The translations under genes and the position numbers were made by a program. A stretch of 64,000 nt of DNA from Escherichia phage SSBS18_WS_10_728. The notes under the pieces were generated by a model, which worked only from the letters and a program-made list of their open reading frames with translations, made no database searches and was not told the origin of the DNA. The DNA lies in the sequence record MT322327.1, one strand, 5' to 3'. Numbering within the stretch: the stretch's first letter is position 1; the number at the start of each line of letters is the position of its first letter. Of the stretch, positions 228-33,920 are shown in pieces.

Positions 228-303
228 TGGAGAATCCGAAGGGACTCGAACCCTTATAAACCTGTTTTGCAGACAGGCACATAGCCATTTCTGTCACGGA
301 TTC
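228..303 (-). tRNA. tRNA-Cys (anticodon GCA)
   Basis: Manual fold: acceptor GAATCCG/CGGATTC, T-arm GGGTTCGAGTCCC, anticodon loop CUGCAAA, encoded CCA. Confidence 0.6.
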
Positions 304-307
304 AAAT

Positions 308-400
308 TGGAGGAAGATACCAGACTTGAACTGGTACACCGATTTCTCAGCTACTGGCAGTTTAGCAAACTGCTCCCTTACCTTTTAGGGTTAATCTTCC
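308..400 (-). tRNA. tRNA-Ser (anticodon GCU), class II with long variable arm
   Basis: Acceptor GGAAGAT/ATCTTCC, anticodon stem GCAGT/ACTGC with loop UUGCUAA, T-arm ACCAGTTCAAGTCTGGT, CCA encoded; 93 nt. Confidence 0.55.
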
Positions 401-401
401 A

Positions 402-1136
402 TTATTTCTGTAATGCGTTCTTCATTTCTGGTGTTGCAATAGTGTCAATCACACCAGTTTTACAAGCATCATCAAACCAGTCTGGTAAGATACCTGCTAA
501 GAACCCATTGATATTCGTTTTAAGGTACTCTGCAATAAGGGCAGCTTCTTCTTCAATCATCTGAACAACTTCATCTGCATAAGCTGTAATCTTTGAAATA
601 CCTTCATTAATCTTATTAACAGCTTGGTTAGCTAAATCAGAAATAGTATCAAGACCTTTATCAATAGCATCCTGTAAGTCACTTAATACATCATTAACAC
701 CATCTAGTGTACTGTTAATCATATCCATAGCTTTTTGACCATACTCTGTAGCAACACCCATAATACCACTAAACGGTGTACAGCCAACTTGTTCCCCTGC
801 TGCACCCATAACATTAGAATAGCCTTTTGCTACCTGCATACGTGATGAAAACTCATCAATGGACTTTTGACCATAATCCGTCAGTGTTTTAGTGGTTGAT
901 GTAGTGCTTGTCAGACTCGTTGTAAAGCTGTTAAGCAGAACTGTTGTAAGTCCAGCAGCAACAAGTTTATCCTTTATTGTAGGGTCTGTTACAGAGCTAA
1001 TAGAGCTTACAAGTGATGTAGAGGCAGCTACGGTTCCACCTAGAACTGCTGCACCAGTAATAAGGGGATTAGAAAACCCTCTACCGGTTTTTAAGAGATT
1101 AAAAATCTCCTTACCTTGTTCTGTCATCTCTTTCAT
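402..1136 (-). CDS. hypothetical protein (Thr/Ser-rich)
   Basis: ORF 402..1199; start moved to internal ATG at 1136 (AAAGG RBS) because the 5' end overlaps tRNA-Phe. Confidence 0.45.
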   Translation of the reverse strand: MKEMTEQGKEIFNLLKTGRGFSNPLITGAAVLGGTVAASTSLVSSISSVTDPTIKDKLVAAGLTTVLLNSFTTSLTSTTSTTKTLTDYGQKSIDEFSSRMQVAKGYSNVMGAAGEQVGCTPFSGIMGVATEYGQKAMDMINSTLDGVNDVLSDLQDAIDKGLDTISDLANQAVNKINEGISKITAYADEVVQMIEEEAALIAEYLKTNINGFLAGILPDWFDDACKTGVIDTIATPEMKNALQK

Positions 1137-1152
1137 TAAGCACCTTTGAAAT

Positions 1153-1228
1153 TGGTAGTCCAGTGGGATTTGAACCCTCTTCTCATGTTTTTCAGACACG
1201 CGCTTTAACCATATAAGCTACTTGGACT
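1153..1228 (-). tRNA. tRNA-Phe (anticodon GAA)
   Basis: Acceptor stem 6/7 bp, T-arm GGGTTCAAATCCC, anticodon loop CUGAAAA, CCA encoded. Confidence 0.6.
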
Positions 1229-1234
1229 ATAAAT

Positions 1235-1310
1235 TGGGGTGACCTACGGGATTTGAACCCGTATAGACCATGTTCACAGCATGGGTCATTACCGTTTATG
1301 ATAAGGCCAC
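1235..1310 (-). tRNA. tRNA-His (anticodon GUG)
   Basis: Acceptor GTGGCCT/AGGTCAC, T-arm ACGGGTTCAAATCCCGT, anticodon loop CUGUGAA. Confidence 0.55.
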
Positions 1311-1341
1311 ATTTAAGGACTCTCGTAAGAACCCTTAGAAG

Positions 1342-1417
1342 TGGCAGCGGCATAAGGATTTGAACCTTAATAAGACAGCTTCAGAGACTGCTGCATTGCC
1401 AGTTATGCTATACCGCT
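1342..1417 (-). tRNA. tRNA-Gln (anticodon CUG), tentative
   Basis: D-stem GCAT/ATGC, anticodon stem GCAGT/GCTGT with loop CUCUGAA, T-arm TAAGGTTCAAATCCTTA, CCA encoded. Confidence 0.5.
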
Positions 1418-1422
1418 AAATT

Positions 1423-1501
1423 TGGTACTCCATATCGGATTCGAACCGATACATAACACAGATTTTAAGTCTGGCCTCTCTGCCAATTGGAGTAATGGAG
1501 C
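1423..1501 (-). tRNA. tRNA with Leu-type anticodon UAA but short variable arm (isotype uncertain)
   Basis: T-arm ATCGGTTCGAATCCGAT, CCA encoded, D-loop AATTGGCAGAG shared with tRNA at 2246..2323; anticodon loop CUUAAAA. Confidence 0.4.
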
Positions 1502-1503
1502 AT

Positions 1504-1578
1504 TGGCGGGGGATGTTGGAATTGAACCAACTTCTTCGATTTCAAAGACCGAGGTTTTAACCTTGTAAACTAATCCCC
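1504..1578 (-). tRNA. tRNA-Gln (anticodon UUG), tentative
   Basis: T-arm GTTGGTTCAATTCCAAC, anticodon stem TCGGT/ATCGA with loop CUUUGAA, CCA encoded. Confidence 0.5.
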
Positions 1579-1587
1579 TTTAAATCT

Positions 1588-2145
1588 TTACTTTCTCAGT
1601 GGATGAATAAAGAATGCCAACATAACTCTTTCCCTTGAGAATGCTCTTTCTTCTGGGACAACACTTTTAAGTTTCCAACCAACATAAATTCTCCAGTAGA
1701 ATTGTTTACCAAAGACTTTAATTGATGGGATAAAAGCGAATAACCCCCAAGCATTGCTGTTCCACATTAGGAGATAACCTGTCTGATTATCTTCAGGGTC
1801 AGAGCTTACGTTGATATTACCTTTCCACTTAGTAACATCTTTTACATCTCTTCCTAACACATGGTAAGAGAAGTTATAAGCTTTGTTTCTCCAGAGCCAT
1901 CCAACTCTCTGCAAATAGACACCCAGCTTACCAATCTTTCTAATCTTAGCCCATCTTTTAATGTGACCTTCATCACCATCAATAGGGTTGTCATATGTCT
2001 CCATCCATCTGAATCCAAAAGGTAGATGTCCTTTCTTCTCACTATAGAATGGAACTACAAAAGGTGCTAAGATAACTGCTAAGATTGCTGCCAATGGGTC
2101 TAGCAAAGCTAGGAAAATCCATGAAGCATACTTCAAATATCTCAT
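1588..2145 (-). CDS. hypothetical membrane-anchored protein inside the tRNA cluster
   Basis: 185-aa ORF, hydrophobic N-terminus, AAGAGG RBS 8 nt upstream of ATG. Confidence 0.55.
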   Translation of the reverse strand: MRYLKYASWIFLALLDPLAAILAVILAPFVVPFYSEKKGHLPFGFRWMETYDNPIDGDEGHIKRWAKIRKIGKLGVYLQRVGWLWRNKAYNFSYHVLGRDVKDVTKWKGNINVSSDPEDNQTGYLLMWNSNAWGLFAFIPSIKVFGKQFYWRIYVGWKLKSVVPEERAFSRERVMLAFFIHPLRK

Positions 2146-2164
2146 TTAAATAGCCTCTTTAAAT

Positions 2165-2240
2165 TGGCGCAGGATAAGGGATTCGAACCCCTATTAACAG
2201 CTTCGTAGACTGTTGCTCTATCCATTTGAACTAATCCTGC
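2165..2240 (-). tRNA. tRNA-Arg (anticodon ACG)
   Basis: Acceptor GCAGGAT/ATCCTGC perfect, anticodon stem ACAGT/GCTGT with loop CUACGAA, T-arm GGGGTTCGAATCCCTT. Confidence 0.55.
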
Positions 2241-2245
2241 AAAAT

Positions 2246-2323
2246 TGGTGTTCCAAGACGGATTCGAACCGTCACTAGTACAAGGTTTGAGCTTGCATCC
2301 TCTGCCAATTGGGATACTGGAAC
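2246..2323 (-). tRNA. tRNA with Leu-type anticodon CAA but short variable arm (isotype uncertain)
   Basis: T-arm GACGGTTCGAATCCGTC, anticodon stem GCAAG/CTTGT with loop CUCAAAC, CCA encoded. Confidence 0.4.
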
Positions 2324-2324
2324 A

Positions 2325-2399
2325 TGGTACTCACTAAAGGACTTGAACCTTTTTCTTCATCTTGTAATGGTGATGTTTTACCATATAAACTAAGCGAGT
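2325..2399 (-). tRNA. tRNA-Val (anticodon UAC), tentative
   Basis: D-stem GTTT/AAAC, T-arm AAAGGTTCAAGTCCTTT, anticodon loop AUUACAA. Confidence 0.4.
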
Positions 2400-2494
2400 G
2401 TGGAAGAGGTCTGAAGTTGTGCCGCTAACTCAACTCCGTGGAATTTGTTACGGTCTTCAGTTGACACCAGCGGTCTTTCACTTGACCTCTGAAT

Positions 2495-2571
2495 TGGTGC
2501 TGCTCACAGGACTCGAACCTGCATTTCCATCCTTACAAGGGATGTGTAATAGCCAATTATACGAAAGCAGC
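2495..2571 (-). tRNA. tRNA-Thr (anticodon UGU)
   Basis: Anticodon stem CATCC/GGATG perfect with loop CUUGUAA, T-arm GCAGGTTCGAGTCCTGT, CCA encoded. Confidence 0.6.
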
Positions 2572-2577
2572 ATTGTT

Positions 2578-2652
2578 TGGAGCATCCAGAGGGAATCGAA
2601 CCCTCAACCTCAGTTTGGAAGACTGTAATTTTCCCGTTTAAACTATGGATGC
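2578..2652 (-). tRNA. tRNA-Gly (anticodon UCC)
   Basis: Acceptor GCATCCA/TGGATGC perfect, T-arm GAGGGTTCGATTCCCTC, anticodon loop CUUCCAA. Confidence 0.55.
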
Positions 2653-2658
2653 ACTAAT

Positions 2659-2734
2659 TGGTGGAGTCACTGAGAATTGAACTCAGTTCCCAAGTTTGCA
2701 AAACTCGAATTTTAACCATATAAACTATGACCCC
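2659..2734 (-). tRNA. tRNA-Ala (anticodon UGC)
   Basis: Acceptor GGGGTCA with G3:U70 pair, T-arm CTGAGTTCAATTCTCAG, anticodon loop UUUGCAA. Confidence 0.6.
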
Positions 2735-2740
2735 AATGTT

Positions 2741-2816
2741 TGGTACAGGTGGAGGGAATTGAACCCATCGTCTTACTGATTAAGAGTCAGCCGCATAACC
2801 ATTTTGCTACACCTGC
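2741..2816 (-). tRNA. tRNA-Lys (anticodon CUU), tentative
   Basis: Acceptor GCAGGTG/CACCTGT, anticodon stem GCTGA/TCAGT with loop CUCUUAA, weak T-stem; paralog of tRNA at 4057..4132. Confidence 0.45.
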
Positions 2817-2823
2817 ATTAATT

Positions 2824-2901
2824 TGGTAGGAGACAAGGGATTCGAACCCTCAAACACCAACTTCTAAGGATGGTAGGTTTACCAATTACCGTCAATCTCC
2901 C
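2824..2901 (-). tRNA. tRNA with Leu-type anticodon UAG but short variable arm (isotype uncertain)
   Basis: T-arm GAGGGTTCGAATCCCTT, CCA encoded, anticodon loop CUUAGAA with 4/5-bp stem. Confidence 0.4.
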
Positions 2902-3156
2902 ATTAAATCTTTTTAGAGAACTTCTAAGAACCTAAGCAACAAGGTTCCACAACAAGCTGTAATAACCTTAGAAGCCCTCTAAAAAGACCTAAATAGGTCT
3001 TTACATAGTCTTGTTTAATCCGGTGACTAGAACCTTTGGAGAGCTTGATATTATCTCTTCTCCGTGACACCTACTAGGTGCTTTACTGTGCGTGTACGAC
3101 AATACACGAGGGATAAACCGAAAATGCGAGCAAGCATGACGGTGTAAATCTTATTA

Positions 3157-3246
3157 GGCGGTAAGTAAAGGAGTCGAACCCTCACCGTATCTCTACAGTG
3201 GCAACAGTTTTCAAGACTGTTTGGCTGCCATTAGCCGCTACCTACC
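3157..3246 (-). tRNA. tRNA-Ser (anticodon UGA), class II
   Basis: Acceptor GGTAGGT/ACTTACC, anticodon stem ACAGT/ACTGT perfect with loop CUUGAAA, long variable arm, T-loop TTCGACT; 3' CC encoded. Confidence 0.6.
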
Positions 3247-3259
3247 CCTAATAAGACTT

Positions 3260-3342
3260 TGGCATGGGACGGAGGAGTTGAACCCCTTTGAAACGGTTTT
3301 GGAGGCCGTTGCTCATGCCTTAGAGTCTTAACATCGTCCCAC
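3260..3342 (-). tRNA. tRNA, possibly Trp (anticodon CCA); atypical length
   Basis: Acceptor GTGGGAC/GTCCCAT, T-arm AGGGGTTCAACTCCTCC, CCA encoded, hairpin with loop CUCCAAA; D region ~7 nt too long in my fold. Confidence 0.35.
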
Positions 3343-3484
3343 ACTATAATTCGAAGCTTACCGTATTTTCGCAACACTGTAAAGCCCCTTCTCAGATTAT
3401 TTACATGTTCTGGAAAACATGAGATACAGACCACCTCCTTACACGGAGACCCGATAAGGTCGTCTAAGCAATCTGCTAACTATT

Positions 3485-3561
3485 TGGCACACCCTACAGG
3501 ATTCGAACCTGTAACTCAATGATTAGAAGTCATTTGCTCTGTCCAGTTGAACTAAGGGTGC
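3485..3561 (-). tRNA. tRNA-Arg (anticodon UCU)
   Basis: Anticodon stem AATGA/TCATT perfect with loop CUUCUAA, T-arm ACAGGTTCGAATCCTGT, CCA encoded. Confidence 0.6.
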
Positions 3562-3854
3562 ATTAATCTTTAAAGACTCTCTTAGAAAGCCCTTAAAGAT
3601 GCCCACTTTATTAATCATACCGTGGGCTAGTACGCCAAATTCTTTGATGAGGGATTGGAAGACCTCACTGGTGTTTAGCCTATCAAGCTACTGCCAGAAA
3701 AACATTGTCGTTTGCATTTATTTTAAATTTGCAAAATAGACGCTACGCAACGAAAACTATTCAGAATATGTACAACAAATTTCCCCACATTGTGTTACGT
3801 CTAACGCTCATGTATTGGTGTTTGAATTATACATATTATGAATCATTTTTAGTT

Positions 3855-3883
3855 ACTATAAAGCGGTCACATCTCAATGTCAA
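3855..3883 (-). promoter_or_regulatory. sigma70-like promoter reading leftward into tRNA genes
   Basis: Minus strand: -35 TTGACA, 17-bp spacer, -10 TATAGT. Confidence 0.5.
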
Positions 3884-3898
3884 CAACTTTATTGAAAT

Positions 3899-3974
3899 TG
3901 GTACTGGTAGGTGGAATCGAACCACCGATATTCCCTTATCAGGGGAGTGTTATAACCTTCTTAACTATACCAGC
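3899..3974 (-). tRNA. tRNA-Ile (anticodon GAU)
   Basis: Acceptor GCTGGTA/TACCAGT, T-arm GGTGGTTCGATTCCACC, anticodon loop CUGAUAA. Confidence 0.55.
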
Positions 3975-3975
3975 T

Positions 3976-4052
3976 TGGAGGTTCAGATGGGAATCGAACC
4001 CACATTCATAGGGCTTATGAAACCCCTGCATTACCTTATCTGCGACTGAACC
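3976..4052 (-). tRNA. tRNA-Met (anticodon CAU; elongator or Ile2-type)
   Basis: Acceptor GGTTCAG/CTGAACC perfect, anticodon stem GGGGT/GCCCT with loop UUCAUAA, T-arm GTGGGTTCGATTCCCAT. Confidence 0.55.
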
Positions 4053-4056
4053 ATAT

Positions 4057-4132
4057 TGGTAGAAGTGGAGGGATTCGAACCCATCGCCTGTCAGATTAAA
4101 AGTCTGCCGCATCACCATTCTGCTACACTTCC
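4057..4132 (-). tRNA. tRNA-Lys (anticodon UUU)
   Basis: Acceptor GGAAGTG/CACTTCT, anticodon stem GCAGA/TCTGA with loop CUUUUAA, CCA encoded. Confidence 0.5.
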
Positions 4133-4333
4133 ATTAAATTATCTTTGTAGATAAGCTACCCAGACTTGCTTAAGGTCTGTAGCGATGTGCCTTGTTGGGT
4201 TTAAATCTAGAATTTACCCTTTCACCCTTTGTGGTCGCATACTCACAGGTAAGCTTAATAGCTCACCTACAAAGATAATTACCAGACCGTTGTTTATCAT
4301 CTTAAGTGCTACCATTACACCAACTCGACATCT

Positions 4334-4357
4334 GCCGAGTGAAGGAATCGAACCTTC
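4334..4357 (-). other. orphan tRNA T-arm-like element (possible tRNA remnant)
   Basis: Perfect T-arm GAAGGTTCGATTCCTTC on minus strand but no matching 5' acceptor strand or CCA nearby. Confidence 0.3.
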
Positions 4358-4393
4358 GCCTTTTCTTTACCGGAGAAATAGATTGTTTAAGTT

Positions 4394-4413
4394 TTGCTGT
4401 AAACGGTCTTCTG
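4394..4413. repeat. tRNA-cluster repeat copy A (TTGCTG-N5-GGTCTTCTG)
   Basis: One of four 20-nt copies; CCAGACC partner at 4281 and 4424. Confidence 0.6.
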
Positions 4414-4483
4414 TAAATTTGTTGAGCCAGACCAAGTTTTAAATTTTTTCAAAATTAAATTGGCTTGAAAATATCATACGTGC

Positions 4484-4503
4484 TTGCTGAATTTGGTCTT
4501 CTG
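4484..4503. repeat. tRNA-cluster repeat copy B
   Basis: TTGCTGAATTTGGTCTTCTG; CCAGACC partner at 4424. Confidence 0.6.
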
Positions 4504-4591
4504 CTCCTTTAAAGAACACTCGTAAGAACCCTTTAAGGGAGGGGCTAAAATAGCCCTCTCAAAACATCATCTTGAAATACTTATTATAATT

Positions 4592-4669
4592 TGGCGGTTA
4601 CGAAGGGATTTGAACCCTCATCATCTCCCGTGACAGGGGAGTATTTTAACCAGATTAAACTACATAACC
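4592..4669 (-). tRNA. tRNA-Asp (anticodon GUC)
   Basis: Anticodon stem CTCCC/GGGAG perfect with loop CUGUCAC, T-arm GAGGGTTCAAATCCCTT, CCA encoded. Confidence 0.65.
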
Positions 4670-4675
4670 TTTATT

Positions 4676-4763
4676 TGGTGTGCCGTGTAGGAGTCGAACC
4701 TACCGAGTCTCAATGACAAGGGATTTACAGTCCCCACCGCTACCATCTACGGGATAACGACAC
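4676..4763 (-). tRNA. tRNA-Tyr (anticodon GUA), class II
   Basis: Acceptor GTGTCGT/ACGGCAC, anticodon loop CUGUAAA, long variable arm, T-arm GTAGGTTCGACTCCTAC, CCA encoded; 88 nt. Confidence 0.6.
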
Positions 4764-4772
4764 ATTTAAATT

Positions 4773-4849
4773 TGGCGGTTAGTCAGGGATTCGAACCCTG
4801 TGCCATTCGCTTAACAGGCGACCGCACATACCTTATGTGCTTCCTAACC
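4773..4849 (-). tRNA. tRNA-Asn (anticodon GUU)
   Basis: D-stem GCAC/GTGC, anticodon loop CUGUUAA, T-arm CAGGGTTCGAATCCCTG, CCA encoded. Confidence 0.6.
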
Positions 4850-4900
4850 TTAATACATTGCCAGACCGTGTTTTTTCTTTTATCCGCAAAAAGTATTTTG

Positions 4901-4920
4901 TTGCTGAATACGGTCTTCTG
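4901..4920. repeat. tRNA-cluster repeat copy C
   Basis: TTGCTGAATACGGTCTTCTG, 6 nt from 3' end of tRNA-Met; CCAGACC partner at 4861. Confidence 0.6.
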
Positions 4921-4926
4921 CAAAAT

Positions 4927-5003
4927 TGGAGGCGGGTGCAGGAGTCGAACCTGCCGATACCATGCTAATGAGACATGTGAGACGCCCTTTCTCTATACCC
5001 GCA
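4927..5003 (-). tRNA. tRNA-Met (anticodon CAU), possible initiator
   Basis: Anticodon stem CATGT/GCATG with loop CUCAUUA, T-arm GCAGGTTCGACTCCTGC, unpaired 1:72 position, CCA encoded. Confidence 0.5.
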
Positions 5004-5067
5004 ATTCTTAATGACCAGACCAAATCTCTTCTTTGTCCGATTTACCTTCAGATGAATAAGATTAAGT

Positions 5068-5087
5068 TTGCTGTAATTGGTCTTCTG
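5068..5087. repeat. tRNA-cluster repeat copy D
   Basis: TTGCTGTAATTGGTCTTCTG, 7 nt from 3' end of tRNA-Glu; CCAGACC partner at 5015. Confidence 0.6.
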
Positions 5088-5094
5088 TCAAAAC

Positions 5095-5172
5095 TGGCGT
5101 TCCAGAAGGGATTTGAACCCTCAAATATCCACTTTGAAAGAGTGGTGACTTTACCATTTTGTCCACTGGAAC
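5095..5172 (-). tRNA. tRNA-Glu (anticodon UUC)
   Basis: Anticodon stem CCACT/AGTGG perfect with loop CUUUCAA, T-arm GAGGGTTCAAATCCCTT, CCA encoded. Confidence 0.6.
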
Positions 5173-5179
5173 ATTAATT

Positions 5180-5256
5180 TGGTCTCTGTTGGAGGACTTG
5201 AACCTCCGGCCTTACCGCCCCAAACGGAACGCTCTACCAAGCTGAGCTAAACAGAG
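5180..5256 (-). tRNA. tRNA-Pro (anticodon UGG)
   Basis: Acceptor CTCTGTT/AACAGAG perfect, anticodon loop UUUGGGG, T-arm GGAGGTTCAAGTCCTCC, CCA encoded. Confidence 0.6.
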
Positions 5257-5374: not shown

Positions 5375-5403
5375 ATATTAAAGGGTATCAAACACATTGT
5401 CAA
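5375..5403 (-). promoter_or_regulatory. sigma70-like promoter for the tRNA cluster, with palindromic spacer
   Basis: Minus strand: -35 TTGACA, 17-bp spacer, -10 TAATAT; spacer is part of hairpin AAGGGTAT...ATACCCTT. Confidence 0.5.
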
Positions 5404-5421
5404 TACCCTTTTTAAAACTTT

Positions 5422-6837
5422 TTACCAGATGTAACGGTCAATCATTACTGCTTTGAGCATTACGCTGGTTGGGTCAAACTTCTCACCACCAAGCAGAGCT
5501 TTTAAAGTGGCTGGAGAGAACCCTGATACCATTGCTACACCGTTATCCTTAACAGATACTTCGCAAGTACCATTACGGTTTGCTAAGTACCAGAATACCA
5601 GTTGTGGCATTTCGTATCCAGCTTTTTTGTACTTACTACGAATTGCTTCAAAGTTTGTACGACCATTTGCACCATCAACCTGATTAAACTCCATATCAGA
5701 GAAGATGATAAGCTTACTTGGCATATCTTTCTGAGTCAAGTTGTTTCTCTTACCTGTCTCAAGAATACGGTCAAAAGCTGCTTGTAAATTAGTTGAACCA
5801 TACTCAACATGACGCATCACCTGACGATGACGGTTTCGTAAATCACCACTCAGTTCGATGAAGTGAGGGTTTGTTGAGTAAACCATTAACTCATTCTTAA
5901 AGCAACCAGTATTGCGTTCTGCTACATACAAGGCAAGTGATACACCAATATCAAGTGCAGTGATTGAACCAAGATTCACCCAAGACATTGAGCTTGAAAC
6001 ATCAGTCATACACAAGATGTTCTCACCTTCTGCCATCCAGTTTGGTAGTGCTTTCCACTGCTCATTGGCAACATCTGCATTACCATGTTTGATAGACTTA
6101 ATCACATCGTATGGGTAAACAGCACCAGCGTTAATCTTAGCCTCACCCTTTGAGAGTGACTCGATGTAAGCTTTGTAACGTTCTCCATCTTTACGGTTAA
6201 AGAGTTTTTGGTAACGTGCAGCAGCAAGAGAAGGAATCTTACTGTAGTCGATTTTACCAAACTCATTAGCAGAGATTTTTTGCTCAACTGTATCAGAAAG
6301 TGCAGACAACAGTGTGCGGTACTCTTTCTCACTCAAGTTAGCAAACTTGCAGAAACGTTTTACAAACTGTTTGTGGCGTGGTTTTACTCGTGGTAACCAC
6401 TTGGCTGCTAAACCTGCTGTTTCAGGGTCTAGTAATGCTGCTTCTAAGTGCTTAAAGGCATCTGTCTCAAAACGAGTACCTACGAAGATTTTGAAGTCAT
6501 CAAAACGACCAAGCTCTGCAATCTTATCCATAATGCGAAGAACCTGTGTAGGCTCTAAAACTTTATCTTCAATTGCTTGAAGTAAAACAGTTCTGAAGGC
6601 TTTACGCTCACCCATACCTTCTCGTACATCTCGCATGTGAAGCAAAATACGAACTGCAACATCAACATCCTCACGCAAAGCTTTGTAGAACAAATCTGGT
6701 AAGATTTCTACATTACTACGGCTGGAACCAGCAGCTTTGTAAAAGTCCACAAGAGCAGACATTGATGAAGTATGGTTTACAGCACCATTTTCAGTTCGAC
6801 CTGCATGAAGGTGCGCATGTTTAAATAATTCGCTCAT
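5422..6837 (-). CDS. vWA-domain protein (MIDAS motif DxSxS), possibly DUF2828-like
   Basis: 471-aa ORF; motif MTDVSSSMS; GAGAG RBS upstream. Confidence 0.55.
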   Translation of the reverse strand: MSELFKHAHLHAGRTENGAVNHTSSMSALVDFYKAAGSSRSNVEILPDLFYKALREDVDVAVRILLHMRDVREGMGERKAFRTVLLQAIEDKVLEPTQVLRIMDKIAELGRFDDFKIFVGTRFETDAFKHLEAALLDPETAGLAAKWLPRVKPRHKQFVKRFCKFANLSEKEYRTLLSALSDTVEQKISANEFGKIDYSKIPSLAAARYQKLFNRKDGERYKAYIESLSKGEAKINAGAVYPYDVIKSIKHGNADVANEQWKALPNWMAEGENILCMTDVSSSMSWVNLGSITALDIGVSLALYVAERNTGCFKNELMVYSTNPHFIELSGDLRNRHRQVMRHVEYGSTNLQAAFDRILETGKRNNLTQKDMPSKLIIFSDMEFNQVDGANGRTNFEAIRSKYKKAGYEMPQLVFWYLANRNGTCEVSVKDNGVAMVSGFSPATLKALLGGEKFDPTSVMLKAVMIDRYIW

Positions 6838-6918
6838 ATTTTACTCTCTTCTCTCATTTGTTGTTTGATGTGACAGACTTTAGAGCAACTTTGTAGAGTC
6901 TGTCAACACCTTTTAAAA

Positions 6919-7290
6919 TTATTTTTTGAGAGTCGCTACAGCAGAGAACGTTGGTTTGTTATCTGTCTGAGGTTGACCAGCACTATCAGGGGTCTTCTTA
7001 GTGTCTGCTGCAAGTGCTTTCATCTCACCTGCTGAGTGAGTAAAGATGGTCTTACCGACCTCAATCATACTCTTGATGTTTACGTCATCTGTGTTTAACC
7101 CGAACTCTGCAAGCTTAGCAGCATCCCTTGTAACAATCGCCTCAAACAGCTTTGCAGCAAACTCAGCAGAATTATCAATGGTCAGTTGAGCTTTTACAAG
7201 TGAACTTTTGTTACGAGAGCCTTTTGGTCTTCCAGATGGGTTTCCAGATTGGCCTTTTTTAAACTGGCCTTTGTTTGTTCTGTTTTTCAT
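6919..7290 (-). CDS. hypothetical protein with basic Gly/Pro-rich N-terminus
   Basis: 123-aa ORF, AAGAGG RBS. Confidence 0.5.
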   Translation of the reverse strand: MKNRTNKGQFKKGQSGNPSGRPKGSRNKSSLVKAQLTIDNSAEFAAKLFEAIVTRDAAKLAEFGLNTDDVNIKSMIEVGKTIFTHSAGEMKALAADTKKTPDSAGQPQTDNKPTFSAVATLKK

Positions 7291-8547: not shown

Positions 8548-8919
8548 ATGAAGGCTAAGAGTGCAAAAGACTTTTATTGCTTCCTACAATCCTATATCAA
8601 TTCCGTGGAGAAAGGTGATAGATATAATCTTAAAGATGTTATTACATCACCTTTAACATGGAGACTTAGCAAATGGCCTGAAGAAGATATCACACCCACT
8701 AGTAAACAACCTACCTACATCCCAGATATTAATCTCCCAGATTCAGATAAGTTATTGTACCCAATGTTCCACATTGTTGGGCTTGGTACATTTCTTATGG
8801 ATATCCAGTATGTAATTGGTAAGGGTTATAAGGTTGAAGGTATTGTTGTTGGTGATGTATCTCCACAACATAAAGGCTATTTTAGATTAAACGCACGTTT
8901 AGAGGCTAAAAAGAAATGA
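8548..8919 (+). CDS. hypothetical protein; paralog of N-terminal domain of next gene
   Basis: 123-aa ORF; shares FxDLQYxI and W(P/R)Ex(D/A)I blocks with 8916..10049 product. Confidence 0.55.
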   Translation: MKAKSAKDFYCFLQSYINSVEKGDRYNLKDVITSPLTWRLSKWPEEDITPTSKQPTYIPDINLPDSDKLLYPMFHIVGLGTFLMDIQYVIGKGYKVEGIVVGDVSPQHKGYFRLNARLEAKKK

Positions 8920-10049
8920 TTAAAGCAAAGACTTACCCAGACTTCAAAGAATTTGTAAAAGGTTTCGTTGCAAATGTAAAGGCTGGTAAGAGATATGATT
9001 TTAGAACATATCAAGAAGCTATTTTACCACTCACCTATAGCTCATATTGGCCTGAAGCTGATATTGCAGAGGTTGAGAAGTTTGACTACAAACCAGACTA
9101 CAAAGTTCCTTTCAGTGATGAACTTCTTTACAGTGTTGGTGCACAGATGAGAACTGCTGATTTCTTCATGGATTTACAGTATGCAATCATCAATGGTAAA
9201 GATGTTGACACAGTATATTGTGAATGGTTGGCAAGAGTTAAGCCGTTCTCAATGTTGAATGCTAAGTTGAAGGATGCCATTAAGCCACCAGTAATTACTC
9301 AGCAGCCAACAAACCAAACAGTCAATGAGGGTGGAGCACTTACCCTAAGTGTTCTCGCAACCAATGCCACTGGGTATCAATGGAAGAAGGATGGTGAGGA
9401 TATCTCAAGTGCCACTTCTGCAACTTACACAAAACAGTCGGTAGCTCCTTCTGATGCTGGCTCATACACTTGCGTTGTGTCTGGAGAGGGTGGAACAAGT
9501 GTCACCTCAGATGCAGCAACAGTTACTGTTAACGCACTACCTGTTATTACCAAGCAACCTTCTAGTCAGACTATCAATGAAGGTGGGAACATCAACTTAG
9601 CAGTGACTGCAACAGGTGCAACTGGTTACCAATGGAAGAAAGATGGTGCTAACATCCCTTCAGCTACGAAGGCCAACTACAGCAAATCTGGTGCGCTTCC
9701 AGCAGATGCAGGTTCTTACACATGTGTTGTGACTGGTGCTGGAGGTTCTGTTACTTCTAGCCCTGCAACAATTACGGTAAAGGCTTTGCCAGTTATCACT
9801 CAACAGCCAGCAAATCAAGAAATCACTGAAGGAGAGACCTTAACGCTGAATGTTGTGGCTACTGGTGCAACAGGTTATCAGTGGAAGAAAGGTGAGGAAG
9901 TCATCCCAGACGCAACTGCTGCAACTTACACCAAAGAAGGTGCAACCGCTGCTGATGCAGGAAGCTACACCTGTGTAGTGACTGGCGCAGGTGGCTCTGT
10001 AACATCTAATGCAGCAACAGTTACAGTTAACCCAACAGGGGAGGCATAA
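8916..10049 (+). CDS. protein with three tandem Ig-like domains
   Basis: 377 aa; three ~90-aa repeats each with GYQWKKDG and GSYTCVV motifs; ATGA start overlap. Confidence 0.6.
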   Translation: MIKAKTYPDFKEFVKGFVANVKAGKRYDFRTYQEAILPLTYSSYWPEADIAEVEKFDYKPDYKVPFSDELLYSVGAQMRTADFFMDLQYAIINGKDVDTVYCEWLARVKPFSMLNAKLKDAIKPPVITQQPTNQTVNEGGALTLSVLATNATGYQWKKDGEDISSATSATYTKQSVAPSDAGSYTCVVSGEGGTSVTSDAATVTVNALPVITKQPSSQTINEGGNINLAVTATGATGYQWKKDGANIPSATKANYSKSGALPADAGSYTCVVTGAGGSVTSSPATITVKALPVITQQPANQEITEGETLTLNVVATGATGYQWKKGEEVIPDATAATYTKEGATAADAGSYTCVVTGAGGSVTSNAATVTVNPTGEA

Positions 10050-14789: not shown

Positions 14790-16360
14790 AAATTTTATCG
14801 GTTGTCCCAACCTCTGGGTCACCATCATATGTGAATAAAATATCTATCCTTCTTAACAGCCTTCTTAATCTTACTCTCTATATAGTTATATAGTACTATA
14901 TAGTATCTTAGTATCTATCTAGTGGTCTTAATAGCACCTCTGTATAGCCCTTCTAAACACTCTTCTAACAAGCCTTCTTAACAGCCTATACAATCACCTT
15001 AACCATTCCTCTACACCCTCTTAGAAGCTCCTATACACCTCTTAATCTCTAGGTTAGCTATGATACTCTCTATAGGTGTTCACTAGGAAATACTAAGCCT
15101 CTATATAGACTGTTTTAACAAACTTAACAGGAATATCTTTACAGACCTTATCTCACAAGGTCTAACACGGTACTAACAAGGTATCTTATAAGCCTGTTTA
15201 TGCCTGTATTTTTAAAAGACTGTCTAGGTAATTATTCAGAATTTTAAAATTTTTATAAAATAGGACTATCAAGTCATTTTTTAGGGTCTTTGAAGGAACT
15301 GAAAAATATCTGTAGAGTTGATTCGGTAGAGCCTACCTCATGATGTATATCTGCTTGGTAGCCCTTAACATCCTTGTAACATCCCCTTTGCAGAATTTTA
15401 AAATATCATTAACAATCTCTTAACAGTTGCTACATCTTCTTAACATCTCTTCAGAGGTCTTAACAGATTCTTAACAGAACTAACAAGAGCTTAACAGTTT
15501 TTTAACAAGTGCTGAATAGTCTTTACAGAGGTTTAACAGATGACTAACAAGTCCTAAGAAGTTAATTTTAAAGGGTTATTTTGTAAAGATAATTAACAAG
15601 TTCCTAACAAGTGTTTAACCTTTTTAACAAGCTATTAACATGGTCACTATCTCTTGGTCTATAGTTCCCTCTCCCTCTTAGTGACCCTTTAAACATACCT
15701 CTTAAAAGCTCTCCATAGCTCTTTGTAAGCTCTTTTAAGTCTCTTCCTAGTAGTTACACCCCCAACTATACAGAAAGCTATTTATAGGGCTTTACAGGAG
15801 CTTTTAAGGCTATGTCAAAGACTCTTACAAGGCTTTTACGTGGTTTTAACAGAGATTTAACAAGGGGCTAACAAGTTGCTAACAAGTACCTTAAAAGCAT
15901 AACTATGTAGGGTTTGTTAAGAAATTGTTAAGAAAATGTTAAGGGGGCTAGCATTTACGTAACTTTATAGCCTCTTTTACGTAACTTTGAAGTAACTTTA
16001 TAGCCTCTTTTACGTAACTTTATAGCCCCTATAACATACTTTTTAGTGACTATCAAGGGGGTTGTTTAGTTATTCACAAGATACTAACGAGATGATAAAG
16101 CTTACACCCTTATAAGATTCTTTTAAGGCTCTGGTAAGCTTTATAAAGGGATTTTAAGGGTGAAGTAATGCAATCCCTTAAGTTAGGTTAAAAAGGCTGT
16201 TATAGGGCTTTATAGAGCGTTTTAGTGGTTGCCCTTCCCTTTCGGGTTATGGGCTTATATTTAAGTTGATTTGATAAAAGGCTATAGAGTAGACTATAGA
16301 GTTATTGCTTTTAAGGTCTAGTAAGATTCTGGAAAGGAAAGGGAAAGGATTTAATAAGAC
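14790..16360. repeat. 1.6-kb noncoding region dense in short direct repeats
   Basis: No ORF of 60 aa or more on either strand; about 20 copies of TTAACAG/TAACAAG, TATATAG runs, ~23-bp direct repeats TACGTAACTTTATAGCCTCTTT at 15955-16030. Confidence 0.7.
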
Positions 16361-32138: not shown

Positions 32139-33920
32139 TTAAAGCTGCTTGTCAATATTATTTCGAATATCACCAAGAGTTGTGTAGCCGAACTGCTCAG
32201 AGTCGCTAAAGACCAAGCGTAAAGCACAAGCTGGGTGTTCAAGTGCATCTGCAAAGCTTTGGAACCCATAGCCATCTACAGCTTTCAGATTTTCACCATC
32301 CCACATAGGTGCTACACCACCAAAAGCAGACTTCTTAACACCGCTGTCTGTTTTAGGGTCTTTTGCAAGCATAATCTCTTTACCACCAATGCTTGCCAGA
32401 GTTGCTTTAACAGCAAATGCAAAGGTGTCACGAGTCATGTACTGGTAAGTGTAAGAACCTACACCAAACACTACGTTAGAGCTTGCAAAACCCATTTCAT
32501 ACAAACGTTTCAGGATTTCGTTTGCACGTTCCAACGTGATAGAGTCACCATAAATAAGCCCGATATGCTCATCCAGTACTTTAAAGCCTTTAGAGTTGAT
32601 AGTTCCTCCAAAGATATTATACAGTGTCTTGATAGCTCCATCAATCTCCGCTACAGGACGTGTGACAACGTTTGCAGAACCAACCATATAAGCGTTTTTC
32701 AACAGCACTGTATCAGCAACTTCAAAGTCTTCTCTGTCAACAACCATTTCGTAGCCTTCTGACAGTAGCCACCCAGCAATACCATAGTTGATGTTTTCAA
32801 GCTTCATGTTCAGAACAGCATTCAACATTGTGTCGCTGGCTTCCAGCTTGCTTAGGTGTTCGTAATAAGCCTTTTTAGCACACTCTAAGTGGATTGCTTT
32901 ATAGCCTGTGACAATATGTACAGGGTCTCCAGAGTCAGGACGAATTACCAGTTTGCCATCACGTTCCATAATCTCTTTACGGAGTTCTGGGAGTATCACT
33001 GATACAGTTCTCCAGAAGTTATAAGTATCTGAAACAACACTTGCAATACCAGTTGGGTAAGTTTCTGTTAAGAAACGACGGAAGGTTTGTAACTCACCTT
33101 TAAAGCGTCTTTCTTCTTCAATCAACTCATTCCCACCTTCCCAAGCAATGTTTGCACACATGACAGAGTGCTCGGTGGCTGGTACAGAACTACCAATATC
33201 AGAGATTGGGTAGGACTGCCCATAGATGCGTTTAGCTGTATACACAGCAGGGAAGCTATCAGTCCCTTTAAAGCTGGTTAAGTGACCTACAGCGTTAAAT
33301 GCGTCATCAGTAAAGCCGGACATACCACGCATAGCAAAATCATGGCACTGATAAGGTAAATGTAAGTCATTGTCACAAGTAAGGTCAGACCACTTCTTAC
33401 AGATACGTTTGTAGTGCAATGCAATAGTTGCAATGGTACAAGCCTTCCAAATCTCAGCAGAGAAAGCATCTTCCAGATACCCCGCTACCCAATGGAAACC
33501 TGAAACAGTGTTCTGGAAGACAACCATTGGTACACGCATAGGAACAACTGTGCCTTCTTCTACAGCGTATACTTCAACTGGTAGATAACCTAAGTCGTGA
33601 AGTGCTTCCCAATGTTCTCGACCAATAGCATCTTTACCCAGAACACCGTTCATGACTTCTAAGATTTCGTCAATTGCTTCTTTTTTGTCACGTTCAAAGA
33701 AGGTGGCGTTCCAGTGGTCTATCAAGTAATCTTTAACAAAACGTTGAATACCAAAAGCTACTACACCATCAATTGCTAAAGGGCTGTTAAACCATTTATC
33801 ACTACGTGGTGTCAGGTTAAACATCAAGTACTCTGTCGCACTAGGATACTGATAAATATGGCCAGACTTGTAAGCATCCGCGTTTAAACCTGCTGGTACT
33901 GCATAAAGTGATTTAGTCAT
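32139..33920 (-). CDS. nicotinamide phosphoribosyltransferase-like (NAMPT/NadV family; possibly Namat)
   Basis: Motifs VPATEHSVM, VVSDTYN, IRPDSGDP; start set to ATG 33920 with GAGAGA RBS. Confidence 0.75.
   Translation of the reverse strand: MTKSLYAVPAGLNADAYKSGHIYQYPSATEYLMFNLTPRSDKWFNSPLAIDGVVAFGIQRFVKDYLIDHWNATFFERDKKEAIDEILEVMNGVLGKDAIGREHWEALHDLGYLPVEVYAVEEGTVVPMRVPMVVFQNTVSGFHWVAGYLEDAFSAEIWKACTIATIALHYKRICKKWSDLTCDNDLHLPYQCHDFAMRGMSGFTDDAFNAVGHLTSFKGTDSFPAVYTAKRIYGQSYPISDIGSSVPATEHSVMCANIAWEGGNELIEEERRFKGELQTFRRFLTETYPTGIASVVSDTYNFWRTVSVILPELRKEIMERDGKLVIRPDSGDPVHIVTGYKAIHLECAKKAYYEHLSKLEASDTMLNAVLNMKLENINYGIAGWLLSEGYEMVVDREDFEVADTVLLKNAYMVGSANVVTRPVAEIDGAIKTLYNIFGGTINSKGFKVLDEHIGLIYGDSITLERANEILKRLYEMGFASSNVVFGVGSYTYQYMTRDTFAFAVKATLASIGGKEIMLAKDPKTDSGVKKSAFGGVAPMWDGENLKAVDGYGFQSFADALEHPACALRLVFSDSEQFGYTTLGDIRNNIDKQL

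Follow-up and report, generated by a model that had tools for sequence, protein, structure and literature searches.

The closest described relatives of the system reported here are Ro60 and Rsr, ring proteins in which a TROVE part is joined to a von Willebrand factor A (vWA) domain, and the Y RNAs that accompany them. Ro60 of Thermus phage phiLo (PDB 9KOP and 9L5Y) binds two phage-encoded Y-like RNAs and the host PNPase, and in vitro, together with these RNAs, it both binds PNPase and dampens the ribonuclease activity of the enzyme (PMC12135203). YrlA, a transfer RNA (tRNA)-like Y RNA, is encoded beside bacterial and phage Ro60 (PMC4201824). We analyzed 64,000 nucleotides (nt) of Escherichia phage SSBS18_WS_10_728 (MT322327.1; this whole stretch is called the window), a Felixounavirus (FelixO1-like) segment with 98% nucleotide identity to Escherichia phage CL1, with regard to the gene of a 471-residue Ro60-like protein and to four structured RNA elements, c1 to c4, which lie in the tRNA array downstream of it (Table 1).

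The counterpart of this protein in phage Bas63 (Escherichia phage JohannRWettstein, MZ501086) has been studied experimentally. Bas63 gp130 has the same length and is identical at 465 of the 471 residues, and bas63_0130 lies in identical synteny, with the DUF5681 gene, the Ro60-like gene and then tRNA-Pro/Glu/Met and further tRNAs. Upon deletion of g130, Bas63 formed tiny plaques on hosts with the single-gene Ppl defence (an ATPase plus a PHP domain) and complementation restored plaquing; furthermore, gp130 carried on a plasmid or inserted into T7 rescued T7 on Ppl hosts to a level past that of the no-defence control (PMC11482910). The same PhageMaP preprint already remarked on the Ro60-like structure and on the location upstream of tRNAs, and its authors speculated that some annotated tRNAs could be Y RNAs (PMC11482910). 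Judged by sequence, the window protein is the orthologue of this experimentally shown anti-Ppl protein and the same in substance; what it is, its likeness to Ro60, its place beside tRNAs and its anti-Ppl role are thus already known from the 2024 preprint. Where that guess concerned annotated tRNAs, our candidates are unannotated spacer elements instead. Our literature searches found no description of this RNA family, which is marked by a CAGCAA box, and no account of the Ppl mechanism; the family, with its four copies in the window, appears to be new as a source of Y-RNA-like partner candidates for the DUF2828 branch to which the protein belongs.

The Ro60-like gene is an exact ATG-to-stop open reading frame (ORF), as the first-pass annotation of the window had described it, on the minus strand (the annotation had left the strand unstated), and it is conserved in 250 Felixounavirus-type records. 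Pfam DUF7788 (PF25043) matched residues 275 to 456 with 148 bits (cutoff, 27.1; E = 2.9 × 10−43), DUF2828 (PF11443) matched the N-terminal part with 104 bits (cutoff, 29; E = 9.9 × 10−30), and PHROG 850 ("RNA-binding protein") was matched at E = 3.6 × 10−184. Both Pfam domains were present in all 36 homologues that we aligned, which were 43 to 89% identical, and weak matches to Pfam vWA_Ro60 were obtained for 6 of the 36; DUF2828 and vWA were among the profiles that the first-pass annotation had named for a search. An AlphaFold2 model built on this alignment (predicted local distance difference test score, 85; predicted template modelling score, 0.85) showed about 265 almost wholly helical N-terminal residues followed by an alpha/beta domain, bearing out the long helical region and the vWA fold that had been proposed. 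In a Foldseek search against the PDB, the only full-length matches were Ro60 structures (human, Xenopus, Deinococcus Rsr and Thermus phage phiLo Ro60), with E values of about 2 × 10−8, template modelling scores of 0.5 to 0.66 and sequence identities of 12 to 16%. In the predicted structure a HEAT-like ring is closed by a C-terminal vWA domain, the doughnut arrangement of Ro60/TROVE proteins, and the MIDAS (metal ion-dependent adhesion site) is aligned to that of Ro60.

The alignment contains 63 invariant columns. Among them are the MIDAS residues D279, S281, S283, T349 and D381, the first three within the DVSSSMS string (residues 279 to 285, nt ~5983 to 6003) that had been read as a MIDAS motif in the C-terminal half, and many Arg and Lys residues of the ring (R40, R69, R72, R78, R111, K146 and R208), with the invariant basic motifs RDxRxGxGER (residues 69 to 78), GRxDD (110 to 114) and AKWxPR (145 to 150). 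To compare profiles, a Ro60 profile was assembled from human Ro60 (537/538 agreement with PDB 9nen) and six canonical phage Ro60 proteins recovered by tblastn. hhalign matched the family profile to it with 84% probability and an E value of 7.7 × 10−6, pairing residues 216 to 444 with Ro60 292 to 529, a stretch made up of the vWA domain and the final helices of the ring and covering the C-terminal 55% of the protein. The MIDAS residues were in register (window protein/Ro60: DVSSSM/DVSASM, STN/GTD, FSDME/FTDNE and SGFSP/CGFDT), and in a global alignment the strongest ring motifs of both families also fell into register, with low confidence. No PDB chain was matched by sequence, with either the single sequence or the 36-member family profile. 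On the basis of the model, the protein is a Ro60-fold member of a separate, divergent family and a structural relative of Ro60, from which it differs in being about 60 residues shorter; the family is probably related to Ro60 by descent, and by sequence criteria it does not belong to the TROVE family.

As had been stated for the tRNA cluster, its promoters follow the gene immediately: two of them lie between gene and array, and the first tRNA (tRNA-Pro) is found 165 nt downstream of the Ro60-like stop codon on the same strand. Folding of the non-tRNA gaps of this array gave the starting clue, namely, that both spacers flanking an atypical tRNA-like gene contain UUUUGNCAGAAGACCNN...NNGGUCUGGNCAUU. 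The exact 9-mer CAGAAGACC occurs at four sites in the 64 kb, all of them on the minus strand and inside the tRNA array, and every site has a pairing partner. The four elements so defined lie 330 to 1150 nt downstream of the Ro60-like gene on the same strand and have a common order of parts, consisting of a 4-bp outer helix, an AGA bulge, a 7- to 8-bp inner helix (AGACCAA/TTGGTCT or AGACCGT/ACGGTCT), then, five nucleotides past the 5′ strand, an invariant CAGCAA box, and a variable A/U-rich loop. The outer helices vary with compensation among copies (TGAC/GTCA, TTGC/GCAA, GAGC/GCTC and TTAC/GTAA). Orthologous positions behave in the same way, as the outer helix TTGC/GCAA of c2 is changed to TTAC/GTAA in other phages, and the GTTC of c3 in Mooglevirus forms a G.U wobble that is acceptable solely on the RNA sense strand. 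All four elements occupy syntenic positions in the eight Felixounavirus sequences examined (8/8), and further copies, the loops of which drift in sequence and length, were found in Suspvirus and Mooglevirus phages. In 21 distinct short copies, gathered through a pairing filter, 231 of 231 cells pair and 5 of 11 base pairs show double-sided changes; none of 500 shuffles reached the observed covariation, and slid controls paired in 22 to 45% of cells. Thermodynamic z-scores of the array gaps were modest and not decisive. A reading of c1 to c4 as promoters or terminators was rejected, as a scan of their strand showed neither pattern.

The spacers around the atypical tRNA-like gene are closely occupied. 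Element c1 takes up exactly the spacer from tRNA-Glu to this gene, and c2 the one behind it. ARAGORN calls the gene "Met-CAT", Rfam reported zero tRNA matches for it at E ≤ 1, and an encoded CCA, which it lacks, is present in nearly all of the other ARAGORN drawings examined (1 to 15). Elements c1 and c2 flank the gene exactly. Possible identities for it are a pseudo-tRNA and a further partner RNA of tRNA-like form. Elsewhere in the array, the 95-nt tRNA-Val/tRNA-Thr spacer (2400 to 2494, minus strand) forms a long stable hairpin (−30.4 kcal/mol, z of about −3.7) and has CTGAAGACC, one mismatch off the motif of c1 to c4, and it was undetected by our covariance models. In Bas63 (locus L002), bas63_0137 (32748 to 32900) and bas63_0138 (32912 to 33022) are annotated antisense over or directly beside c3/c4; these "hypothetical protein" ORFs are probably spurious calls, and the PhageMaP knockouts of them would have hit the c3/c4 RNAs.

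The longest copy, c4, resembles YrlA. Within its bulged stem it presents an anticodon-like hairpin (5 bp with a 7-nt loop), a short variable region and a T-arm (GAAGG-TTCGATT-CCTTC), next a loop-closed acceptor-like stem, and then TG at the U8 position and a D-arm (GTGT-AATGGTA-GCAC). Unconstrained minimum free energy folding of c4 returns exactly this arrangement, a four-way junction that the bulged stem closes. The acceptor-like hairpin shows compensatory changes from genus to genus (ACTCG/CGAGT to ACACG/CGTGT), and a weak tRNA match lies within c4 at 4340 to 4390. The YrlA upstream of the mycobacteriophage Myrna Ro60 gene (L168, about 2250 to 2390) arranges its arms in the order seen in c4, has a D-arm that is almost the same (GTGTGATGGAAGCAC versus GTGTAATGGTAGCAC), and carries GNCGAA and CGGTTATC motifs in place of CAGCAA. 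A YrlA-like RNA with GNCGAA and no CAGCAA can also be recognized by eye upstream of the StarPlatinum Ro60 gene (L166, 1867 to 1990). As in known YrlA/YrlB systems (PMC4201824), c1 to c4 adjoin a Ro-type gene, their 5′ and 3′ ends are paired, a short motif is conserved toward the 5′ side, and one RNA per locus has a T-arm, a closed acceptor stem and a D-arm, accompanied by shorter RNAs devoid of the tRNA-like domain. They differ in that the CGGTTATC motif is missing, c4 keeps its anticodon-like hairpin, and copies are embedded in or abut tRNA arrays. By analogy, c1 to c4 look like equivalents of the Y RNAs, of YrlB and YrlA type, that accompany canonical Ro60.

Permuted tRNA-like modules are also present in long copies of no fewer than six other lineages (L008, L018, L019, L068, L080 and a Klebsiella Stephanstirmvirinae phage, L173), in which a T-arm, a closed acceptor hairpin and a canonical D-arm follow the same permuted order. 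Other long CAGCAA-box copies, in L009 (3128 to 3240), L013 (144 to 288), L016 (1260 to 1381) and L024 (9728 to 9836), contain a GAACCTTTCYGGAGGGGAAAGCAAAAACTCGCC insert and no tRNA-like module, which suggests a third RNA subtype in this one group of viral contigs. Rfam 15 gave no match for c1 to c4, and neither the window nor 7 distant loci yielded an Rfam Y RNA. This negative says nothing, since the YrlA next to canonical phage Ro60 escapes Rfam as well: at gathering thresholds it reports zero Y RNAs in the canonical loci L163 to L168. Curated models therefore miss phage Y RNAs. Neither Rfam nor our own covariance models gave any cross-detection between the YrlA/YrlB and the CAGCAA-box families.

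The strict Felixounavirus motif (AGAAGACC...GGTCTGG) did not occur outside Ounavirinae, and covariance models were therefore needed for the search in distant loci. We sampled 80 viral and 80 bacterial-assembly loci of the protein family, most of them 34 to 48% identical. Model R1, trained solely on Ounavirinae short copies, retrieved exactly c1 to c4 in the window, scoring c4, which was outside the training set, at 54 bits. In 1.28 Mb of distant viral loci R1 gave 31 matches at E ≤ 1. Without exception they are on the gene strand, and they have a shared layout (AG-N5-6, N-T-W-CAGCAA, an A/U-rich loop, and the exact complement ending in CU, then G) and entirely different helix sequences (AGAATGG/CCATTCT, AGGGCAA/TTGCCCT, AGGACAC/GTGTCCT and AGGTTTC/GAAACCT). 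When 35 copies were aligned by fitting to the model, pairing held in 98.9% of cells and double changes were present in 10 of 11 base pairs (113 cells), compared with 26 to 45% pairing in slid controls.

The iterated model, R2, yielded 61 matches at E ≤ 0.1 in 76 distant viral loci, 34 of which lie within 600 nt of the family gene (7.2% of the DNA; 4.4 expected, P = 3 × 10−23), and 30 matches in the 80 bacterial-assembly loci, all of which were outside training, with 22 no farther than 600 nt from the gene (2.8 expected, P = 4 × 10−17). Taken together, 56 of the 91 matches fall within this distance, all 91 are on the gene strand, 79 contain an exact CAGCAA, and 3 are situated inside a same-strand ORF, though such ORFs span 65% of the DNA. 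With filters off, R2 found nothing above 13.6 bits in the T4 tRNA array (rnaC, rnaD), the Boopy Ro60/tRNA/transfer-messenger RNA (tmRNA) locus or the StarPlatinum Ro60 locus. In the whole window, the best match after c1 to c4 scored 18 bits. These results indicated that a structured RNA family exists, covaries and is linked to the family gene across very distant phages.

tRNAs themselves also accompany the family gene, in agreement with the expectation of a conserved link to tRNA or RNA metabolism. All tRNAs found within 8 to 10 kb of family genes (481/481) were on the gene strand, and their density peaked at 1.1 per kb in the first downstream kilobase and was 0.1 to 0.2 at 8 to 10 kb. A tRNA was present somewhere in the locus in 43 of 78 lineages (clusters at 70% identity), and within 1 kb in 23 of 71 lineages versus 21 of 118 pseudo-gene controls, which were deliberately conservative in being placed only 4 kb off (odds ratio, 2.2; P = 0.03). 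No tRNA identity was conserved beside the family gene across the sampled loci. The canonical Ro60 gene of Gordonia phage Boopy also heads a tRNA/tmRNA array, directly upstream of it. The most extreme tRNA linkage was seen in two Chloroflexi assemblies (L120 and L127), where the family gene lies inside an array of 23 to 25 tRNAs, with 18 to 23 tRNAs upstream, 2 to 5 downstream, and CAGCAA-box elements just upstream of the gene. In the related contigs L075 and L076 the sole nearby tRNA is one that ARAGORN reads as a suppressor ("Stop" anticodon), 821 nt downstream of the family gene, and in L022 a group I intron (15696 to 15922; Rfam RF00028, 71.5 bits) is located ~4.3 kb downstream.

We estimate at roughly 0.6 the probability that the divergent Ro60-type ring protein and c1 to c4 form a ribonucleoprotein (RNP) of the Ro60/Y-RNA type, belonging to a divergent and widespread phage branch. 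RNA binding, the route of RNA processing and the countering of Ppl are the parts of this proposal that we infer. The protein would be made early from its host-type promoter, because a sigma-70-type promoter at this place implies early expression by the host RNA polymerase. The tRNA array would probably serve c1 to c4 as a processing scaffold, from which the host tRNA-trimming enzymes (RNase P and the 3′-trimming enzymes) would cut them; in keeping with this, c1 and c2 fill their spacers within 1 to 6 nt and many distant copies abut tRNAs at 0 to 7 nt. The outer surface of the protein would then bind the bulged stem and the CAGCAA box, by analogy with the binding of the conserved Y RNA stem by Ro60, and the ring hole could thread single-stranded 3′ ends of structured RNAs, with c1 to c4 possibly gating, targeting or stabilizing the protein. 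Such an RNP would modulate RNA turnover or quality control (of tRNAs, or of damaged or misfolded RNAs) in the phage's favour, possibly with a host exoribonuclease such as PNPase, and its action would blunt the Ppl defence.

Several observations weigh against this interpretation. On the protein side, the alignment of family and Ro60 profiles leaves residues 1 to 215 unaligned, these N-terminal 215 residues resemble Ro60 through fold alone, and Pfam TROVE (PF05731), a profile that had been named together with vWA and DUF2828, matched none of the 36 family members, even with the threshold relaxed to E ≤ 10. On the RNA side, the copies of the first covariation count had been selected through a pairing filter, the 35-copy alignment was fitted to the model, the fold energy of c4 is unexceptional (z of −1.85), and the GNCGAA(N)G box of YrlA/YrlB is absent from c1 to c4, which have CAGCAA at the equivalent position. 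An R2 element within 600 nt at E ≤ 0.1 was present in about a third of the distant loci, and the absence of the element where the family protein is lacking rests on three loci. Finally, gp130 alone restored the plaquing of T7, which is without c1 to c4, on Ppl hosts (PMC11482910), and c1 to c4 are therefore not required for the anti-Ppl effect.

The rescue by gp130 by itself (PMC11482910) could also be explained if the protein were a direct, protein-level inhibitor of Ppl in which RNA has no part, its vWA/MIDAS domain clamping an acidic residue of the ATPase-PHP enzyme and the neighbouring RNAs being unrelated. The MIDAS residues are indeed invariant, and vWA/MIDAS domains are classic protein-protein adaptors, as in midasin and the integrins, which were among the structure matches. 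We nevertheless regard this explanation as unlikely. The family comprises about 5,800 homologous clusters at 50% identity and is found in 709 phage GenBank records (versus 358 for canonical Ro60), in Felixounaviruses, KVP40-like vibriophages, Campylobacter, Listeria, Enterococcus and Staphylococcus phages, giant Erwinia/Salmonella phages and mycobacteriophages, and also in many bacterial assemblies, especially those of Clostridia, with hosts ranging from Clostridia to cyanobacteria and mycobacteria; this far exceeds the reach of one enterobacterial defence gene. Some of these records are already annotated "Ro-like RNA binding protein". Moreover, conservation is unusually high for a direct inhibitor and includes the invariant basic residues of the ring, a covarying RNA family tracks the gene, and the gain in T7 growth past the no-defence control suggests a general function.

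The location of the RNAs could also be accounted for if CAGCAA-box elements were generic spacer or processing structures of tRNA arrays, or cis-regulatory elements of untranslated regions, which are co-located with the gene through tRNA-rich accessory regions and are not bound by the protein. Many copies do lie 0 to 7 nt from tRNAs, c1 and c2 each take up exactly one tRNA spacer, and among the 27 viral R2 matches remote from the gene, 21 have a tRNA within 150 nt. We consider this account quite improbable, as over half of all matches flank the gene at the significance given above, including loci free of tRNAs (L012, L030, L032, L041, L044 and L054), and the T4 array, the Boopy array and the StarPlatinum locus were negative. 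In addition, the terminal bulged stem, the conserved box and the permuted tRNA-like domain reproduce the design of the YrlA beside real Ro60. T4 species 1 and 2 (rnaC/rnaD) are likewise stable RNAs of small size that are not tRNAs and that are encoded and processed together with the tRNAs of a phage array, but they have no CAGCAA-box stem, with a best R2 score of 13.6 bits; the phage groups listed with matches to the protein family do not include T4, no direct check of T4 having been made.

The first-pass annotation had likened the protein to vWA proteins of RNP and RNA-repair systems and had proposed a check for co-occurrence with tRNA clusters or RNA ligases; of these, the Ro60-like fold and, in many lineages, the tRNA genes were found, but no conserved linkage to ligases or other repair enzymes. 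No conserved protein partner emerged among 150 flanking ORFs of 38 loci, where HNH and RNaseH-like proteins, one Rnl1-type RNA ligase and one CCA-adding enzyme occur sporadically. We regard as highly improbable a scaffold of the Rsr-RtcB-RtcA type, on which tRNAs damaged by nucleases would be offered to a ligase and a kinase of phage or host. In its favour, cellular Ro/TROVE proteins are described as RNA-repair platforms, some jumbo phages pair them with ligases (PMC7824862), Bas63-type genomes encode a polynucleotide kinase elsewhere, and the RNA ligase and the CCA-adding enzyme were seen among the neighbours. Against it, linkage to RtcB, Rnl or Pnk is not conserved (1/150 neighbours each), the window has no ligase beside the gene, and one gene by itself is enough to transfer the anti-Ppl activity.

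Features of the locus are summarized in Table 1.

Table 1. Features of the Ro60-like gene and of the tRNA and Y-like RNA array in the window
Feature	Position	Strand	Basis or description
Promoter of Ro60-like gene, strong, sigma-70 type	6877..6906	-	TTGACA-18-TAAAGT; consensus scan; promoter annotation in phage AYO145A
Ro60-like protein gene (DUF2828 + DUF7788), 471 residues	5422..6837	-	ATG-to-stop ORF, family profiles, predicted structure
N-terminal HEAT-like all-helical ring, ~265 residues	6043..6837	-	Predicted structure, alignment; TROVE-like by fold alone
C-terminal vWA domain, residues ~270-456 (Pfam DUF7788)	5470..6030	-	Profile homologous to Ro60 vWA plus last ring helices
MIDAS DxSxS, D279-V-S281-S-S283	5989..6003	-	Completed by T349 and D381
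Terminator-like hairpin, 12 bp	5380..5411	-	Directly 3′ of Ro60-like stop codon; overlaps -35 of first array promoter
Two strong sigma-70-type promoters of tRNA/Y-like RNA array	5403-5375, 5312-5283	-	Consensus scan; between gene and array
26 co-oriented tRNA genes	228..5256	-	ARAGORN; c1 to c4 embedded
Y-like RNA c1 (candidate)	5009..5093	-	TGAC/GTCA, AGA bulge, AGACCAA/TTGGTCT, CAGCAA box, 53-nt variable loop
Atypical tRNA-like gene, ARAGORN "Met-CAT"	4927..5003	-	4-bp T stem, acceptor A.C mismatch, without encoded CCA
Y-like RNA c2 (candidate)	4855..4926	-	TTGC/GCAA, AGACCGT/ACGGTCT, CAGCAA box; fills spacer before tRNA-Asn
Y-like RNA c3 (candidate)	4421..4509	-	GAGC/GCTC, AGACCAA/TTGGTCT, CAGCAA box
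Y-like RNA c4 (candidate, YrlA-like)	4276..4419	-	Shared helix-bulge-helix and CAGCAA box around circularly permuted tRNA-like module

Upstream of the Ro60-like gene, a DUF5681 gene (6919 to 7290, minus strand; 123 residues, with a Lys/Gly-rich N terminus) is a constant neighbour in Felixouna-, Susp- and Mooglevirus phages; the two genes have separate promoters, and DUF5681 was not seen beside distant family members. Two same-strand protein genes are located inside the tRNA array, encoding DUF7338 (1588 to 2145, minus strand) and DUF7217 (402 to 1199, minus strand), the latter weakly resembling tape-measure-like or coiled sequences. Conservation in Ounavirinae holds for both genes, and relatives have them annotated as membrane proteins. 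On the opposite strand, past a divergent promoter region, a 377-residue protein (8916 to 10049, plus strand) contains three immunoglobulin-like domains (Hoc-like or tail-protein PHROGs) and has no bearing on the Ro60-like protein or the RNAs.

Ro60/Y-RNA particles are a classic yet poorly understood means of RNA surveillance, and their phage versions have been scarcely studied so far. The family of the window protein is much larger in phages than canonical Ro60, and one of its members has a clean Ppl-escape phenotype in a tractable E. coli phage. Elements c1 to c4 turn the vague idea that some tRNAs may be Y RNAs into concrete partner candidates that can be tested, and the covariance model can be used to annotate CAGCAA-box RNA in thousands of phage genomes. 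Reading these elements as Y-like RNAs would account for unannotated conserved spacers in phage tRNA arrays. A broader reading, which we offer tentatively as one that could well prove wrong, is that proteins of the DUF2828 branch and CAGCAA-box RNAs constitute an unrecognized and very widespread phage RNP, the RNAs of which are made via tRNA arrays, with release by the tRNA-processing enzymes of the host, and which protects infection from nuclease-type defences such as Ppl; its range would extend over hundreds of cultured phages (coliphages, Listeria, Campylobacter, Vibrio and giant phages) and many prophage-like bacterial loci. If true, this would represent a new class of RNA-containing anti-defence machine and would explain in functional terms why phage tRNA clusters are, in part, built as they are.

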